A stretch of DNA of 64,000 bases, from IMG/VR virus record IMGVR_UViG_3300009509_000004, positions 42,759 through 106,758 of that record, one strand, 5' to 3'. This document shows, piece after piece, positions 21,765 to 28,545 of this stretch; position 1 is the stretch's first letter, and every line of letters starts with the position of its first letter. This DNA comes from a virus. Position numbers and translations under genes: made by a program. Below the pieces are notes generated by a model. It searched no databases, was not told the origin of the DNA, and worked only from the letters and a program-made list of their open reading frames with translations.

Positions 21765-22364
21765 TCAAGCAGCCAGCTTCTGAACTTTGGCCTTGCCGCC
21801 AATAGAAAAGCCCTTGAGCTTGGCCTCTTTGACCAATTTCCAGACCTTGGCGTCAGTCACCTTGACTGTCATGATCCATGCGCCCTCTTTGACTGTGGTG
21901 CCATTGATCACAACGTCATGTGGAGCGATCCAAGACTCAAGAAGCTCAAATTGTTGCTTTCCAAAATACTTGTGCATTAGGCCAAGTTTGGTGGCCTTGT
22001 TGTACCTTGCTACGAATTGGTGCGCCGCCTTCCTGATCACCTCCTTGCTCATGATGTCGCCTTGGGCGTCCACCACTTCTGGCTGGAGCACGACGCCTGT
22101 GACAGTCTGCTCATCAGCATTGGCTTTGATCAGGGGCACATAGATGTTCTTTTGGACTTCAGTTGTCTCCATGTCCTCTGCCTTCTCTTGAGGCTCCAGC
22201 TTGACCTTGGGCTGCTTTGGCTTGACGCCGCTGCCGCCTGGTAGCCCCCTTGCTGGGTGCAATTTGCCGCTGTCGCTCAAGTCTCCAGCATCGATGGTCT
22301 TGGCGACAACTTTGTGTTGCCCCTTCTCATCGGCTGGAAAAGCTCTGCGTGGTAGCCTTGGCAC
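21765..22364 (-). CDS. Prohead serine protease (XkdF-like)
   Basis: VTGVVLQPEVVDAQGD...AAHQF...MH...ESWIAP...GAWIM...GFSIGG. Confidence 0.88.
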   Translation of the reverse strand: MPRLPRRAFPADEKGQHKVVAKTIDAGDLSDSGKLHPARGLPGGSGVKPKQPKVKLEPQEKAEDMETTEVQKNIYVPLIKANADEQTVTGVVLQPEVVDAQGDIMSKEVIRKAAHQFVARYNKATKLGLMHKYFGKQQFELLESWIAPHDVVINGTTVKEGAWIMTVKVTDAKVWKLVKEAKLKGFSIGGKAKVQKLAA

Positions 22365-22420
22365 ATCTCACCTCGTTTGCGCAATTCAACACAACAAGGT
22401 AAGAGTAGATTGGAAGCGCC

Positions 22421-22464
22421 AAAAAGGAAAGCATCACACAGGCATGAAACCCGTTATGCTTTCT
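22421..22464 (-). terminator. Intrinsic terminator after the MuF operon
   Basis: GAAAGCAT...ATGCTTTC stem followed by CTTTTT on the minus strand. Confidence 0.5.
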
Positions 22465-22500: not shown

Positions 22501-22749
22501 CTATACTTCTTCAACCATGATTTTGCTGGAATTTGAAAATGCGATGGGCAGATTGTCCAAGAACTTTTGGCCGTCCTTGGGGGTGAAAAGACCTTTTGCT
22601 GTCACGATCCCGTTGCGCTCCAAGTCATCCTTGAACCACTCGGTGTCCTTCTGCCAGTCAGCGACCAACTTGCCCCCAGACATATTGAATGTGACTAGGT
22701 GCTTGTATTTGCCTGTATCTGGCTTGTATATGGTGACCTTGAGTGCCAT
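22501..22749 (-). CDS. Small protein downstream of MuF-kinase (candidate immunity/partner)
   Basis: 82 aa with AGGAG RBS; position only. Confidence 0.6.
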   Translation of the reverse strand: MALKVTIYKPDTGKYKHLVTFNMSGGKLVADWQKDTEWFKDDLERNGIVTAKGLFTPKDGQKFLDNLPIAFSNSSKIMVEEV

Positions 22750-22787
22750 CTATTATCTCCTATGCGGTTCTGCCCACTTTCGCTGAA

Positions 22788-24890
22788 TCACCCGCCAGTC
22801 TTGGCCCCTGGCGTGGAACTGATGAATTGCCCTGCTGATGTGATATTCTGCGGAGCAGCCCCTGCATCTTTGTATGCCTCTCCAACGATCTTGATGATTT
22901 TCTCTCTGTCTCCTGGCTTGACCAACGTCAACGGTTTGTTGGTGGCCCTGCTGAAAAACTCCATGACCTTGGATGTGGAGTTGTACTCAGGCATCTTGTC
23001 TATGATTTGTGGGTTGATTTGCAGCGCCCTGATTCTGATCAACGTTTCCATCGTGGCCTGGCTGGGCACACCCGCTTCCCTGAGCACCTGGGCAACTCTC
23101 TCCAACTTCAACTTCCTGATTGCCAACACGCTCGCCCGATCCAATTTGACCAACGAGTCTGCCAACGTGGATGGCGCATCAGTTGGGAAAATGTACCTTG
23201 CAGGCATCCCCTTTGGGAATGTCAGCCCGTTGTCGATTGCGATGGCGTTGTATGCCGTCTTGCCGCCCCTCTTCACGGCCTTGAACATGATATTCTGCGT
23301 GTGTCTGTCGTCATTGGCCCCGATGACGTCAAGCAAAAACATCCTGCGGATGCGCGGATCGTTGTTCAGTTGGCCCGCATAGGCCATGCTCCTGACTGCA
23401 GACCCTACATCATCCATGTCCTTTGCCCCTGGAACATAGTGTTGCAGGCTGCCAATCTTACCAACGCCTGGATCACGAGACACAGTTGGTGGCACAACCA
23501 TTGTGCCGCCCATCTCCCTGTCGATCTTGTACATGGCAGCTTCCCTGGCGTGGTATGTCCCAGGCTCGATGCCCCTGCGCAAGCTCATCTCGCTCTCAGC
23601 TGTCTTCCAGACAGCCTTCACTTTGGTTTGGTCTGGCGTCTGTAGGGTTGCCATCTGCGCCCCGTTGACGCCCTTCCCGATCTGCTTTGCGCTGATCATC
23701 CTGCTCGTCAGCAAGTTGCGGATGATTTTGTCTTCAGCACTCTCCTTTTTGACACCAGGCGGCATGATCTCCTTGGGCCTCACTGGCCTGGTGCTCGTTG
23801 GGAAGTCCATTGGTTGCAGATCTGAATATGACCCAACCTCATCGGACACATCAACTGTACACCTGCACCTGAAGTGATATGGCGGCAAGGAGAATCCAGC
23901 AGCGGCAAGCGCCGCTTCATCCTTCCCCTCGACAGCCTTGGCACTCCTGGGCCATGGGTGTATTGCCTTGATGTCCTCTGGGCTCTTGGCCATGAACTCC
24001 TGCTCAATCTGATTCAACCCCTGCTGCAAGCTGAACGTCTTGCCTTGCAGCGAGTCACAGACTGCGCAGATCCTTGTGCCACCTGGATTGGTGATGGTGT
24101 AGCGCGTGATGCCGACCTCGGCAAAACTCCGCATCTGCCCATACACCCGTCCAACCGTCATCGCATTGGCGACAAGCCCTTCAAAATACTGCTTCTCAGT
24201 GCCTATGAATCCTTTGGGCGTGACAACCTTCCCCAACATCGCCTTGACGCGGTCAGCCATCAGCTGGCCCGCAACGGCTGGACTTTGCCCCGCCTCGATC
24301 ATCGCCTCGCGTGTTGTGTCGCTGATCGAGTTTGACAGGTTGGTGTCGTAATGTTCACCAATCCAAAATGTGTTCTTGTCCTTCAGCGCCTGGACAGCCT
24401 CTTCATCGACAAGATCAAACGATGGAAGCGCTTGAACCTTTGCCTTTTTGACAGTTGACGTTGTGCCCTCTGTCTTGGGCACGTTGAACTGGAGCGATGC
24501 CATAGACTGCTTGGTGGCCTTCTTGTAGCCTGCCAGCCTGGCCAGCCTGTACACAGCGACTATTTCTGTGTTGAATGTGGCTGTTACGTCCTTGGCCCAC
24601 TTGTTCATGACGTTGGCGATTGCGGCTGCAATCTTGTCGGCAGGCTTCAAGTCCTTTGCCATCTTGACAGCGACCTTGACCGCCTCTGCTTTGCGTGCGT
24701 TCCACTTCCCTTCCAGGAAGCTCCGCAAGCGCAACTCAGCCCGCGCAATCTGCGCAACCTCGCTCAACTTGAGCACTTTCGCAATCGTCAAATCGGATGA
24801 TGCGCTGTTGATGTATGCCTTGGTCACGCCAATGGATACATACTTGCGCTCATGCAGCTTTATGACATTGCTGTGGCAATCATCGCACAT
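22788..24890 (-). CDS. MuF (SPP1 gp7-like) head morphogenesis protein fused to a PI3K/PI4K/HipA-like kinase domain
   Basis: MuF: RICAVCDSLQGK...PPYHFRCRC. Kinase: IGKGVNG, AVWK, REAAMY, GSLQHYV, NDDRHTQN, AIDNGLTF. Confidence 0.85.
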   Translation of the reverse strand: MCDDCHSNVIKLHERKYVSIGVTKAYINSASSDLTIAKVLKLSEVAQIARAELRLRSFLEGKWNARKAEAVKVAVKMAKDLKPADKIAAAIANVMNKWAKDVTATFNTEIVAVYRLARLAGYKKATKQSMASLQFNVPKTEGTTSTVKKAKVQALPSFDLVDEEAVQALKDKNTFWIGEHYDTNLSNSISDTTREAMIEAGQSPAVAGQLMADRVKAMLGKVVTPKGFIGTEKQYFEGLVANAMTVGRVYGQMRSFAEVGITRYTITNPGGTRICAVCDSLQGKTFSLQQGLNQIEQEFMAKSPEDIKAIHPWPRSAKAVEGKDEAALAAAGFSLPPYHFRCRCTVDVSDEVGSYSDLQPMDFPTSTRPVRPKEIMPPGVKKESAEDKIIRNLLTSRMISAKQIGKGVNGAQMATLQTPDQTKVKAVWKTAESEMSLRRGIEPGTYHAREAAMYKIDREMGGTMVVPPTVSRDPGVGKIGSLQHYVPGAKDMDDVGSAVRSMAYAGQLNNDPRIRRMFLLDVIGANDDRHTQNIMFKAVKRGGKTAYNAIAIDNGLTFPKGMPARYIFPTDAPSTLADSLVKLDRASVLAIRKLKLERVAQVLREAGVPSQATMETLIRIRALQINPQIIDKMPEYNSTSKVMEFFSRATNKPLTLVKPGDREKIIKIVGEAYKDAGAAPQNITSAGQFISSTPGAKTGG

Positions 24891-24899
24891 GTTGCCACC

Positions 24900-26771
24900 T
24901 TACATGTCAAGGTCAAAGTCTGTGGTGTCCTCGACCGATCTGGACTTTTCGACCTCTGTTTGCAGACGCCTCTCCAGCTTCTTGTTGATGCTGAGCAGGT
25001 GGTCAACCATGGGATCGCTGCCCAGCCCGCTGACCATCTCGCTGTTGCCGCACTTGGTGCATTCAGCCTCGATGAGCGTTGGCTCTTCAATATCTGCATC
25101 GACATCCCAAAGCCTCTTGAGCGCCGTGAGTTGTTGCCCTGGCTCAGTCGGTTCTGCTTTGTTCTTGACCGCCTCTGCCATGGTGAGGCTGAACGGCACA
25201 TCAGATGGGAAGTCTGCTGGGAAGTCTGGAAGCTCTGCTGACAAGATGTCTTCAAGCATCACGCGTGCGATGCGTGGCGTCATCCCGCCTGTCTTCTCAG
25301 CGCCCGCCAGGATCTTGACCAGCTGCTGATTGTCTGTCGTGTTGGGGCTGTTGCTCTTGTATTTGTGGTACACAATCCCCATCTCAGGGAACAAGATGCG
25401 GTTGATCAGCTCATCAAACTCCTGCCGCTCTGGAGCAAAGATCTGCTCATCTGCAAGCACCCGACTGGCCTCAGCCGTTGCCCTGGTGTATTCATCCGTG
25501 CGACCGACAAAGATCGGTGGAAGTCTCCAAACCCGCCTCACCTTGTCCTGGTTGTTCTCGCTGTAATTCTGGAACAACGCATCCTTGTGTTGCTCCTTGA
25601 CCAATGGTTTGACCTCGACCTTGGCGTGGCTGCCGCTTTCCTCGCCCTCCATCAAGCCTTCAGCTTCCAGCAACAAAAACTTGCTGTAATTGTCGCTGCC
25701 CTGAATCTGGCTCTCCACAAAGCTCTCGATGCGTTGAATTGAGCCCTCGGTGAGCTGCCCATTGCTGACCAACACGACCATCGATGGAATATTGTTGTTC
25801 CTGAAGGTCACATAGTTGATCTCTTCAGCAGCCCTGTCTCCAAAGATGCTGAGCATGTTGCCGATATATCGGGGCAACCCGTATGGCGTGCGAGCTGAGT
25901 ACAGCTTCATGTGCACGACCTCGTTTGCCCTGTCTTCTATGGGCAGCTTGGCGTCTGCGATCTGCCCTGTGCGATTGTCATATATGCGTGTGTCACCAAA
26001 CTCCTTGAACCACCTGATTTTGTGCCCTCCAACCGTGGATAGGTTGCGCAGGTACACCGCCTTGCTCTGAACAAACTTCCTGAAGCGCCGCCACTCCTTG
26101 ATTGTGGCGACCTTGACGCTGCCATCCAGCTGCAACTCCAGGATCTTGCGATCTGTGAGAACCTGCGCCTCATCCAGTCGCCCCAACCGCATCTGGTAAC
26201 TGGGCAAGTGCACAAACGATTGTATTGCCCCAAGGTCATTTCTGATGACCTCAAAGTAGGCATTGCCTGTGCCTTCCAAGTCCTTGCGCAATTTGCGTCT
26301 GAATGCCACAAAGCTCTCTGCTGTGCAGTATTGGAAAAAGTTGACAAGGCGCACCCGCTCCTTGTTCAGCTTCTTTTCCAATTCAGGCGGCAATTTCTCG
26401 CCATCAACCTCTTTTTTCATGCGTGGCACAAAGCGATGGCCAAACCCCTCGATGTTTGTTTCCATTGCCTCGATGCACTGCTCCATCTCGCTGGAATGCT
26501 CTGGGAGCATCGCCAATGTGAGCAGGTCAAATGGTGGCTCGATGACCGTGCCCTTCACCGATAGTGAATGGAACGGATCTTGCGGCACAGCCTGAGACTT
26601 CCCAGGGGCAGCTCTGGGCAGCTGCTTGGTGATTGGGATGTCCATTTGTCCGATGACACGCGCCCTGATTGTGTTCATCGCCTTTTGATTGGCATCTGCA
26701 CCAGCAACATTGGCCGCCTTCTCAATGGAAACGACCTGTGCCGCTTGTGCCTTCCTGTTATGATTGGCCAT
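24900..26771 (-). CDS. Portal protein (PBSX XkdE-like)
   Basis: IEPPFD...GNAYFEVIRN...ANEVVH...YGLPRY...FRNNNIP...RLPPIFVG...TRATAE. Confidence 0.9.
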   Translation of the reverse strand: MANHNRKAQAAQVVSIEKAANVAGADANQKAMNTIRARVIGQMDIPITKQLPRAAPGKSQAVPQDPFHSLSVKGTVIEPPFDLLTLAMLPEHSSEMEQCIEAMETNIEGFGHRFVPRMKKEVDGEKLPPELEKKLNKERVRLVNFFQYCTAESFVAFRRKLRKDLEGTGNAYFEVIRNDLGAIQSFVHLPSYQMRLGRLDEAQVLTDRKILELQLDGSVKVATIKEWRRFRKFVQSKAVYLRNLSTVGGHKIRWFKEFGDTRIYDNRTGQIADAKLPIEDRANEVVHMKLYSARTPYGLPRYIGNMLSIFGDRAAEEINYVTFRNNNIPSMVVLVSNGQLTEGSIQRIESFVESQIQGSDNYSKFLLLEAEGLMEGEESGSHAKVEVKPLVKEQHKDALFQNYSENNQDKVRRVWRLPPIFVGRTDEYTRATAEASRVLADEQIFAPERQEFDELINRILFPEMGIVYHKYKSNSPNTTDNQQLVKILAGAEKTGGMTPRIARVMLEDILSAELPDFPADFPSDVPFSLTMAEAVKNKAEPTEPGQQLTALKRLWDVDADIEEPTLIEAECTKCGNSEMVSGLGSDPMVDHLLSINKKLERRLQTEVEKSRSVEDTTDFDLDM

Positions 26772-26785
26772 GCCAGCCTCCTACC

Positions 26786-28252
26786 TCAGATGACGCCTGG
26801 CTCACGCCGTCTGCCTCTGCGTTTTTTGAGTTTACTCGCTCTGTTGGCTAGGTCCAAAGCGTCAAACAAATCCTTGTATCTGAAATTTGGGAACAGCACC
26901 AGCTGTTCGACCAATAGATGCATGTTGCCGCCCTTCTTGAAAAACATCCTCATGTCCTCAAACTGCGGCTCCAGCTTCCATGCCCTTGCGATTTTGTCCT
27001 TGTCCTGATTGACAGGCTTCAACCTGATGTCTTTGTCGTATTCATCTTTCAGGTTCTGATACTGCGCCAGCTGATATGCATTGGTCTCGATGCAGCACCT
27101 GATTGGATCCCACTTCTGGTAATACTCAATGATCTTCCTTGTCTGAGCGCCAAAGCGTAGGTGCCCAGCAAAGAAGTCCAACACATACCTGTTCTTGTCT
27201 GTGTCCATCCCAAGGACAACAATGGCCATCTGGTCATTGGTTTCCTTTTCTGTGATGGCCAAGTCAACGCCCATGAAGATGCGCAGCGCCTTGGGGATGT
27301 CCCCAGCCTCGATCATCTGGCATTGATCATATTGGAAAATTTCACCCTTCATCGCCTCTGTATCACATTGATACTGTGCGTTGAAGATGATGATGCCTGA
27401 CTTGCGCTTTTTCTCCATGAACCATTTGGGTGGATACTTCTCTGGCCATGGGCTGCGCCCGTCTGCGTCCAACGCTGCGATGATATTGTGGTGGTGCTTC
27501 AGCTCGTTGTCGATGAGGTGCCCATACAGGTCATCATAGTGATACCTTGTGCCCAGCCTGTGGTGCTCCCCTCTGTGCTCAACGCTTGGGTCTGGCGGTT
27601 CCAAAGTTGGGTCAAGTGATTGGTAGTACCATGTCCTGGTCTTGTCGCGCATGTACTTTGTGCGCGTGTTCTCTTCATCGCACAGGTCATCGCTGATGAT
27701 GACGTCATAGTGCTTGCCAACGACCTGCGCCCCAACACCCAGCGTTGTGACAGACGCCTCCTTGGCCCTTGTCGTGCGGGGCAGCACCTCGATCTCGCTG
27801 TTGTCCCACTTCCTGACTGCTCTTGGGTCATAATATGGCCCAAATATCTCAATGAGCTTGTCGTTGCTCTCGAAATGCGCCTTGATTTCTTTCAAGAATG
27901 CCTCTGCCTGCCCTGACGTCTTTGAGGTGATCAGGATGCGCAGGTTGGGATTCTTGAGCAATAGGTGGATGACTTTGGCAACTGTGCAAACCGTGGACTT
28001 TCCAGCCCCTCGGAATGCCAATTGCAGGTTGTCTGGGTGCCTGAATTGATATGCCATCATCGCCAGATGGAATGGCTCCACCTGGTATCCCAGCACGTAG
28101 GTGGCCAAGATGTCTATGCGATTGTTGACAATGATTTGGCGCTTCAACCACTCATTGCCCATGGCCTTGTAGTGGTCAAGCGTTTGGACAAGCTCGCTGC
28201 GCTCTGAGTCCTCAATCCTTCTTGTTATCGGTATGACCGCAGCACCTGGCAT
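26786..28252 (-). CDS. terL: Terminase large subunit
   Basis: Walker A FRGAGKST, Walker B VIISDD, GTRYH, nuclease GVDLA and DLFDA. Confidence 0.92.
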   Translation of the reverse strand: MPGAAVIPITRRIEDSERSELVQTLDHYKAMGNEWLKRQIIVNNRIDILATYVLGYQVEPFHLAMMAYQFRHPDNLQLAFRGAGKSTVCTVAKVIHLLLKNPNLRILITSKTSGQAEAFLKEIKAHFESNDKLIEIFGPYYDPRAVRKWDNSEIEVLPRTTRAKEASVTTLGVGAQVVGKHYDVIISDDLCDEENTRTKYMRDKTRTWYYQSLDPTLEPPDPSVEHRGEHHRLGTRYHYDDLYGHLIDNELKHHHNIIAALDADGRSPWPEKYPPKWFMEKKRKSGIIIFNAQYQCDTEAMKGEIFQYDQCQMIEAGDIPKALRIFMGVDLAITEKETNDQMAIVVLGMDTDKNRYVLDFFAGHLRFGAQTRKIIEYYQKWDPIRCCIETNAYQLAQYQNLKDEYDKDIRLKPVNQDKDKIARAWKLEPQFEDMRMFFKKGGNMHLLVEQLVLFPNFRYKDLFDALDLANRASKLKKRRGRRREPGVI

Positions 28253-28254
28253 GC

Positions 28255-28545
28255 TCAACCCCGCTTGGGATCGTACACCAGGAATGTCGCCTCATCTTCA
28301 GGCACAAGGACAGTCTGTGGACGTGTCCATGTTTTCTCGACCCCGCTTGCCCCTTGTGCGGGTGGTGTACAATAAGGGCATGAAATGTGTCCCATGTCAC
28401 TCTCGACATAGAACGGCTTGTGGCAGTCCTGGCAAAAACACGCCAAGAGACCAGTTGAGATGTAGTGGGCTTGCCCTCCATCTCCATCCCCTACAACAAT
28501 TTTGTCTGGCAGACGTTTCAGCCTGCTGACCCTGATTTTCGACAT
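28255..28545 (-). CDS. Small Zn-ribbon protein
   Basis: CQDC...CPYC. Confidence 0.5.
   Translation of the reverse strand: MSKIRVSRLKRLPDKIVVGDGDGGQAHYISTGLLACFCQDCHKPFYVESDMGHISCPYCTPPAQGASGVEKTWTRPQTVLVPEDEATFLVYDPKRG

Follow-up and report, generated by a model that had tools for sequence, protein, structure and literature searches.

A MuF-type phage head protein with a predicted type II PI4-kinase-like tail and a dedicated small partner

The 64,000 nucleotides of viral DNA analysed here (hereafter the window) form the right-hand 64 kb of IMG/VR virus record IMGVR_UViG_3300009509_000004, which is complete at 106,758 bp and has direct terminal repeats. The window encodes a 700-amino-acid (aa) protein, P0001, in which a MuF-type minor head domain is joined to a kinase domain resembling type II phosphatidylinositol 4-kinases (PI4Ks). 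The gene that follows encodes an 82-aa protein, P0002, which, judged from its distribution among related loci, is a dedicated partner of the kinase. Kinase and partner together very probably form an exchangeable cassette grafted on MuF, and we consider it fairly probable that the whole makes up a capsid-loaded kinase effector with a small binder that silences the kinase in the producer cell. The fusion gene, its parts and the partner gene are located as follows:

22788-24890, minus strand: MuF-kinase fusion gene, 700 aa (P0001), from the map of open reading frames (ORFs), with full-length homologs at 35-82% identity
23787-24890, minus strand: MuF/SPP1 gp7-type minor head domain, residues 1-368 (PHROG; TIGR01641, E 1.8e-6; PF04233 on homologs)
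23742-23786, minus strand: proline-rich variable linker, residues 369-383, the left border of the exchangeable cassette, placed by the limit of homology
22866-23741, minus strand: type II PI4-kinase-like domain, residues 384-675 (~290 aa)
22501-22749, minus strand: gene of the 82-aa kinase partner (P0002), which may be an antidote or regulator and has a weakly HipS-like predicted fold

As the original prediction had it, a MuF domain and an intact kinase lie in one 700-aa ORF, and the motifs it listed are found where it placed them. In the MuF domain these are CAVC at residues 275-278 and HFRCRC at residues 339-344 (nucleotides 23859-23876), the latter agreeing with a MuF signature expected to end near 23860. 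The direct MuF matches of the 700-aa protein stay below the cut-offs (PF04233, 15.2 bits vs 29.6; TIGR01641, 28.3 bits vs 39.65), and the MuF assignment is based on these weak matches together with the PHROG minor-head-protein families that match the N-terminal half, the precomputed PF04233 domain on seven full-length homologs at 41-55% identity, and the gene position. Relatives of the N-terminal domain also carry the name "SPP1 gp7 family". The conserved C-terminal junction motif of the MuF domain, GSYxxLxPM, occupies residues 353-361, and similarity to MuF proteins with no tail or another tail ends at about residue 364-368. At its extreme N-terminus the protein reads MCDDCH (residues 1-6, 24873-24890), a CxxC-type motif; P0004 and P0012 start similarly (MCDCE, MCDDC), and P0026 has CEIC further into the protein. 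CAVC, CRC and the N-terminal cysteine motif might jointly make up a metal site.

The C-terminal domain contains the motifs GKGVNG (residues 405-410), VWK (427-429) and REAA (449-452), followed by a catalytic loop and a metal-binding motif; these kinase motifs are far beyond chance. Three of the sites were placed against human PI4K2A:

23604-23606, minus strand: codon of K429, the ATP-binding lysine of VWK, invariant in A4 and nearly so in A2, aligned to the lysine of PI4K2A VFKP
23292-23312, minus strand: catalytic loop DDRHTQN, residues 527-533, aligned to PI4K2A NTDRGNDN
23226-23237, minus strand: IDNG, residues 552-555, the metal-binding DFG equivalent, identical in PI4K2A AIDNGLAFP

Profile searches assign the domain to the PI3/PI4-kinase superfamily. 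The Pfam PI3_PI4_kinase model (PF00454) matches at E 2.5e-6 with 28.0 bits, above its gathering cut-off of 27.1, and NCBIfam TIGR03843 (the SCO1664 family) matches at E 1.9e-11 over residues 396-562, which cover the N-lobe and the catalytic loop. A single-protein search of the 700-aa protein against PDB sequences gave no relevant match; a profile of 83 relatives retrieved human PI4K2A at E 3.6e-19, in an alignment that pairs the ATP lysine, the hinge GSxQ, the catalytic loop and the AIDNGLxFP motif. Across the 83 relatives, K429, E450, D528, R529, H530, N533, D553 and G555 vary little or not at all, and D521 too is invariant or nearly so. Residues 381-700 were modelled with AlphaFold2 from the 83-sequence alignment, and the model has a pLDDT (predicted local distance difference test) of 93.5 and a pTM (predicted template-modelling score) of 0.90. 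The top Foldseek matches of this model in the PDB are PI4KII alpha and beta (E 2.6e-8), and its residues 3-286 align with the complete PI4KII catalytic core (chain 103-452). Because PI4KII is the closest fold and the catalytic residues are conserved, the domain is predicted from sequence and model to be enzymatically active and to belong to the type II PI4K lineage. The next-best folds in the comparison score clearly lower, namely Fam20 (14.8), CtkA (14.1), HipT (12.2), CotH (11.7) and HipA (11.4). The kinase had been described beforehand as "PI3K/HipA-like": the superfamily part of that description stands, and the HipA-like part has to be given up, as the fold search puts PI4KII far above HipA and HipT and the domain does not fall in the HipA/HipT clade.

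Eukaryotic PI4KII has a palmitoylated cysteine-rich anchor (CCPCC in PI4KII alpha). No such cysteine-rich membrane anchor was found in the phage protein, which has no CC dipeptide anywhere in its 700 residues. Phosphatidylinositol is absent from most bacteria, so the substrate of the phage kinase would more likely be a protein or a small molecule than that lipid.

The evidence that ties P0002 to the kinase comes from co-inheritance. In tblastn searches, the partner gene lies directly downstream in every intact-kinase locus of sufficient extent, and nowhere else. An iterated hidden Markov model (HMM) of the partner matches at E<1e-3 in 39 of the 52 testable intact-kinase contigs, a count over contigs that are not phylogenetically independent. 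Its matches almost always overlap the kinase stop codon or lie within 40 nucleotides (nt) of it on the same strand, and they include matches beside stand-alone kinases (L115-120, L123). The original prediction had staked itself on the small gene not following kinase-less MuF homologs as well; the partner is absent from all 66 kinase-less MuF loci, whether they have no tail or another tail, even at E<=10, and the prediction survived this comparison. A reciprocal partner-seeded scan returned kinase contigs only.

In one lineage (P0015-P0017), the catalytic loop reads SSRR in place of DDRH, and the aspartate of DNG is lost in two of the three members. The corresponding loci, L017 and L018, have no partner gene, and the protease gene follows MuF after 156 nt. 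A P0017-seeded scan for further pseudokinase contexts returned only the L017/L018 contigs. The MuF protein at L017:4994-5854 has kept its pseudokinase tail despite having lost the catalytic aspartate, histidine and asparagine and an N-lobe loop.

Stand-alone kinases of 375-382 aa at L119:2181-3800 and L123:3522-5126 are each accompanied by two diverged partner paralogs, one upstream and one downstream of the kinase in L119 and both downstream in L123. At L110:3715-4908, the kinase is followed by a 397-aa ORF whose first ~60 residues look partner-like by eye, a resemblance that the HMM does not support (E 0.22), and which continues into a poly-Asp stretch; in this locus the partner may form part of a larger fusion protein.

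Relatives with other or additional payloads bring small ORFs of their own. In loci with tails consisting solely of an ADP-ribosyltransferase (ART; L023, L029, L053, L026), the next gene is a short ORF with the motif DRFxDxGxDFxTVYDKxGNP. The MuF protein at L032:5036-7055 carries an ART and then a kinase, and downstream of it lies a single 109-aa ORF that combines a P0002-like domain with the ART-partner motif (E 1.4e-4 among 15,904 ORFs). The MuF protein at L003:5030-7249 has the reverse order, kinase then ART, and is followed by two small ORFs; one is P0002-like, and in the other the ART-partner motif is visible solely in the alignment and falls short of HMM significance. In L032 and L003, the number of partners appears to match the number of payloads. 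An ART-tailed MuF protein at L033:4895-5767 has no separate small ORF and carries a weak ART-partner motif (E 0.39) at its own C-terminus, where the ART partner may be fused in cis.

The kinase family is large. When 1.84 billion cluster representatives were searched exhaustively with HMMER, 708 clusters (50% identity) matched at E<=1e-3 and 148 at E<=1e-10, and in most of these clusters the kinase domain is C-terminal in a protein of 600-700 aa. The sampled long members are portal-MuF-kinase or portal-kinase fusions, and the short ones are stand-alone kinases. As a C-terminal domain, the kinase is carried by MuF, portal-MuF and portal proteins (P0083, P0164, P0173). All carriers identified among the sampled family members are head-interior proteins, and this is the main, if indirect, argument from which we infer capsid loading.

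Genomic contexts were read from IMG/VR loci, 80 of which hold MuF relatives, and a second scan seeded with the kinase motifs gave 53 kinase loci. Tail-less MuF relatives end 15-27 residues past the cysteine motif, directly after a (G/E)S[YFW]xxLxP junction, and are followed after 14-250 nt by the protease gene. In tailed relatives, a Pro/Lys-rich linker and a payload come next, and then a small ORF within a gap of 240-620 nt. Consistent with the variable C-terminal payload that had been expected of this protein, sibling MuF proteins have no tail, a kinase, a pseudokinase, an ART (PF03496), an anthrax-lethal-factor-like (ATLF-like) domain or unknown domains, every tail being attached past one shared GSYxxLxP junction. 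In a maximum-likelihood tree of 37 distinct MuF N-domains, from which loci lacking a complete N-domain or the cysteine motif were excluded, explaining the kinase label takes 6 changes for 7 rows. Well-supported branches impose at least 4 of these changes, and the clustering of the label does not exceed that of shuffled labels. Eight tail-less proteins form the sister group of the window plus L001 (100/100 support), and L042, with a different tail, is the sister of the kinase-bearing L020 (100/99). With kinase tails on separate branches of the MuF tree, the payload has been repeatedly gained, lost or exchanged.

What the partner looks like is less clear than where it occurs. Its structure model has a pLDDT of 91.8, and two independent structure searches place it nearest, weakly, to HipS or to N-subdomain 1 of HipA; Foldseek against the PDB gave no match. 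Pfam, PHROGs, NCBIfam and PADLOC provide no annotation, the partner profile returned only noise from PDB sequences, and word-based homolog searches found 4 and then 16 "hypothetical" proteins. The Couple_hipA model (PF13657) has no match in the genome at E<=10 and matches none of 31 partner family members. When the partner was compared by hhalign with a Couple_hipA alignment of 30 sequences from 151 genomes, the result (probability 1.5%, P 0.033, 17 columns) left a sequence link to HipS unsupported. On the strength of the models, the chances that the partner has a HipS-like fold are roughly even. Two more specific ideas, a pseudo-substrate at Ser74-Ser75 and a tryptophan plug at Trp32, were dropped, as conservation at these positions is confined to close relatives and lost in the wider family.

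The fusion gene belongs to a head module in which the order is terminase, portal, MuF-kinase, partner, XkdF protease, scaffold and major capsid protein, all on the minus strand. The neighbouring features are:

26786-28258, minus strand: large terminase gene of the head module
24900-26771, minus strand: portal protein gene (PF04860, E 4.9e-15)
22418-22463, minus strand: hairpin (22427-22463) and U5 run 3' of the partner gene, a possible weak terminator (RNA fold dG -21.9, z -1.8)
21765-22364, minus strand: XkdF-type prohead protease gene (PF14550, E 7e-32)

The MuF-kinase gene starts 9 nt past the stop of the portal gene, and the partner gene (22501-22749, minus strand) has an AGGAG ribosome-binding site 7 nt upstream. 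A terminator had been proposed to close the unit: the hairpin and U5 run make it plausible, and a consensus terminator scan detected none after the partner gene. All genes examined across the window lie on the minus strand, and the GC skew is negative throughout.

The phage is large and probably virulent. Neither a tyrosine integrase (PF00589) nor a serine integrase (PF00239) was found in the complete 106.8-kb genome, and a scan of one genome each of 185,579 species gave no close prophage relatives, the only matches being distant kinases in metagenome-assembled genomes (MAGs). The closest match of the large terminase among cultured phages has 31% identity, so the phage has no close cultivated relative. 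Host assignment was attempted both from this terminase match and from the genome scan with its distant kinase relatives in MAGs, and neither gave a host.

From these observations a mechanism can be proposed. By analogy with SPP1 gp7 and Mu F, the MuF domain would place the protein within the capsid at the portal vertex, and a few copies of the fusion protein would leave with the DNA. On entry, the kinase would phosphorylate a host target and so serve takeover or counter-defence. The partner would act as a stoichiometric binder that prevents kinase activity in the producing cell while the late genes are expressed, much as HipS acts on HipT, and it would stay behind or be displaced on packaging or ejection. 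For HipT, neutralisation by HipS is known to occur through direct binding at the Gly-rich loop (PMC10627512), and in hipJS modules the kinase gene is followed by HipS (PMC8262856).

Several points weigh against this capsid-loaded, partner-silenced effector. Packaging, ejection, kinase activity, substrate and partner inhibition are steps that we infer, as are toxicity and binding. The partner went undetected in 11 of the 52 testable contigs, several of which have, at the corresponding place, a small ORF resembling the partner, and no conserved "plug" residue is evident in the partner. The joint loss of partner and catalysis, which would fit an activator or subunit equally well, is seen in a single lineage represented by two near-identical contigs. 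Indeed, the present data do not separate an inhibitor from a required subunit or chaperone, and this is the main rival: the partner could be a positive subunit, either a detached lid or N-subdomain, comparable to that of full-length HipA, or a folding or packaging chaperone, perhaps co-packaged. N-subdomain 1, to which HipS corresponds structurally and which is among the best structural matches of the partner, is integral to active HipA (PMC10627512, PMC8262856); strict co-inheritance, like the joint loss with the catalytic residues, suits a cofactor just as well, and some stand-alone kinases have two partner paralogs beside them (L119, L123). However, all characterised free-standing HipS proteins neutralise their kinase, the kinase model covers the complete PI4KII catalytic core with nothing obvious missing, and each of the chemically quite different ART and protease-like payloads comes with small ORFs of its own, as toxin-immunity pairs do. 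We regard a positive role of the partner as rather unlikely.

The two remaining explanations leave the partner aside and concern where and for whom the kinase acts. It could work in the producer cell or procapsid, through late phosphorylation or in head maturation, without delivery to the next host. The gene does belong to the late head module and shares its expression with the structural genes, and the dead version kept in one lineage hints at a non-catalytic, possibly structural role. Yet close relatives have no tail or have swapped it for unrelated enzymes, so that the tail is dispensable for assembly; the fusions to MuF and portal proteins point to the capsid interior, and the ARTs found in the same slot recall the injected T4 Alt (PMC5512222), all of which makes action confined to the producer cell improbable. 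More improbable still, to the point of being hardly credible, is a classical temperate-phage MuF polymorphic toxin with which lysogens kill competitors, the small gene serving as the lysogen's immunity protein. Its architecture and small downstream ORF do fit the definition of Jamet et al. 2017 (PMC5576092), but the complete genome has no tyrosine or serine integrase, the scan of one genome each of the 185,579 species gave no close prophage relatives, and the partner gene, placed in a late structural operon, shows no sign of being expressed in lysogens. Because of the missing integrase and the missing close prophage relatives, an injected enzyme for takeover or counter-defence is more plausible than a toxin for competition among lysogens.

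Among known systems, the MuF polymorphic toxins are the nearest in architecture (PMC3482391, PMC5576092, PMC5512222); MuF toxins with downstream immunity genes have been described (PMC5576092). They share with the phage protein an N-terminal MuF head domain encoded next to the portal gene, a variable enzymatic payload past a conserved junction and a payload-specific small ORF (<150 aa) immediately downstream, and ART payloads occur in the siblings studied here. They differ in that the payload here is a type II PI4K-like kinase, and in that MuF polymorphic toxins have been described as restricted to temperate phages, whereas this phage has no integrase. The word "kinase" is absent from the founding MuF-toxin paper (Jamet et al. 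2017, PMC5576092), the polymorphic-toxin survey of Zhang et al. 2012 (PMC3482391) mentions neither HipA nor PI3K nor a lipid kinase, and the kinase and MuF passages of Iyer et al. 2017 (PMC5512222) name only zeta-toxin-type and truncated Ser/Thr/Tyr kinases. A search of the open-access full-text literature found no account of a MuF or phage PI4K-like kinase. A MuF effector with its partner is thus a known module, and the kinase is a new class of payload.

The kinase itself can be set beside three groups. Compared with the type II PI4Ks (PI4KII alpha and beta; PDB 4hne, 4pla, 4wtv, 9hhm), the phage kinase, at ~290 residues, has no cysteine cluster and stands in a viral context; its catalytic loop is a PI3K-like DRHxxN, whereas that of PI4KII is DRGNDN. 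The SCO1664 family (TIGR03843), which comprises uncharacterised actinobacterial PI3/4K-like proteins, is the best NCBIfam match, yet its 43.8 bits are far under the cut-off of 172.4, so the phage kinase is a distant relative of that family and no member. With HipBST and hipJS (PMC6581861, PMC10627512, PMC9325769, PMC8262856) it shares the same broad kinase superfamily and a free-standing partner of ~80-100 aa, and with hipJS also the gene order of kinase then small gene. Unlike those systems, it has no HipB-type helix-turn-helix regulator, and its neighbours are the portal and prohead protease genes.

The finding matters because, where proteins injected by tailed phages along with the DNA are sought, MuF payloads are the strongest candidates, and of the very few that have been tested none is a kinase. 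The family described here is large and predicted to be catalytically intact, and the 82-aa partner is a genetic handle that makes two-plasmid experiments possible. It raises the questions of what phages phosphorylate on entry, how dangerous cargo is silenced during assembly, and whether kinase control in the manner of HipS is older and wider than toxin-antitoxin systems. As a tentative extension, which we hold to be possible and on balance doubtful, many uncultivated, apparently virulent phages might share a Hip-like "split kinase" logic, in which a PI4KII-type kinase, borne into the capsid by MuF or portal proteins and kept silent in the producer cell by an antidote of HipS fold, is injected and phosphorylates a host target; no earlier family of kinase effectors delivered from the capsid would then be known, and the family would also be a large viral and prokaryotic sister group of the otherwise eukaryotic PI4KII. 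The kinase family described here also gives the type II PI4-kinase fold, usually treated as eukaryotic, a prokaryotic and viral context.

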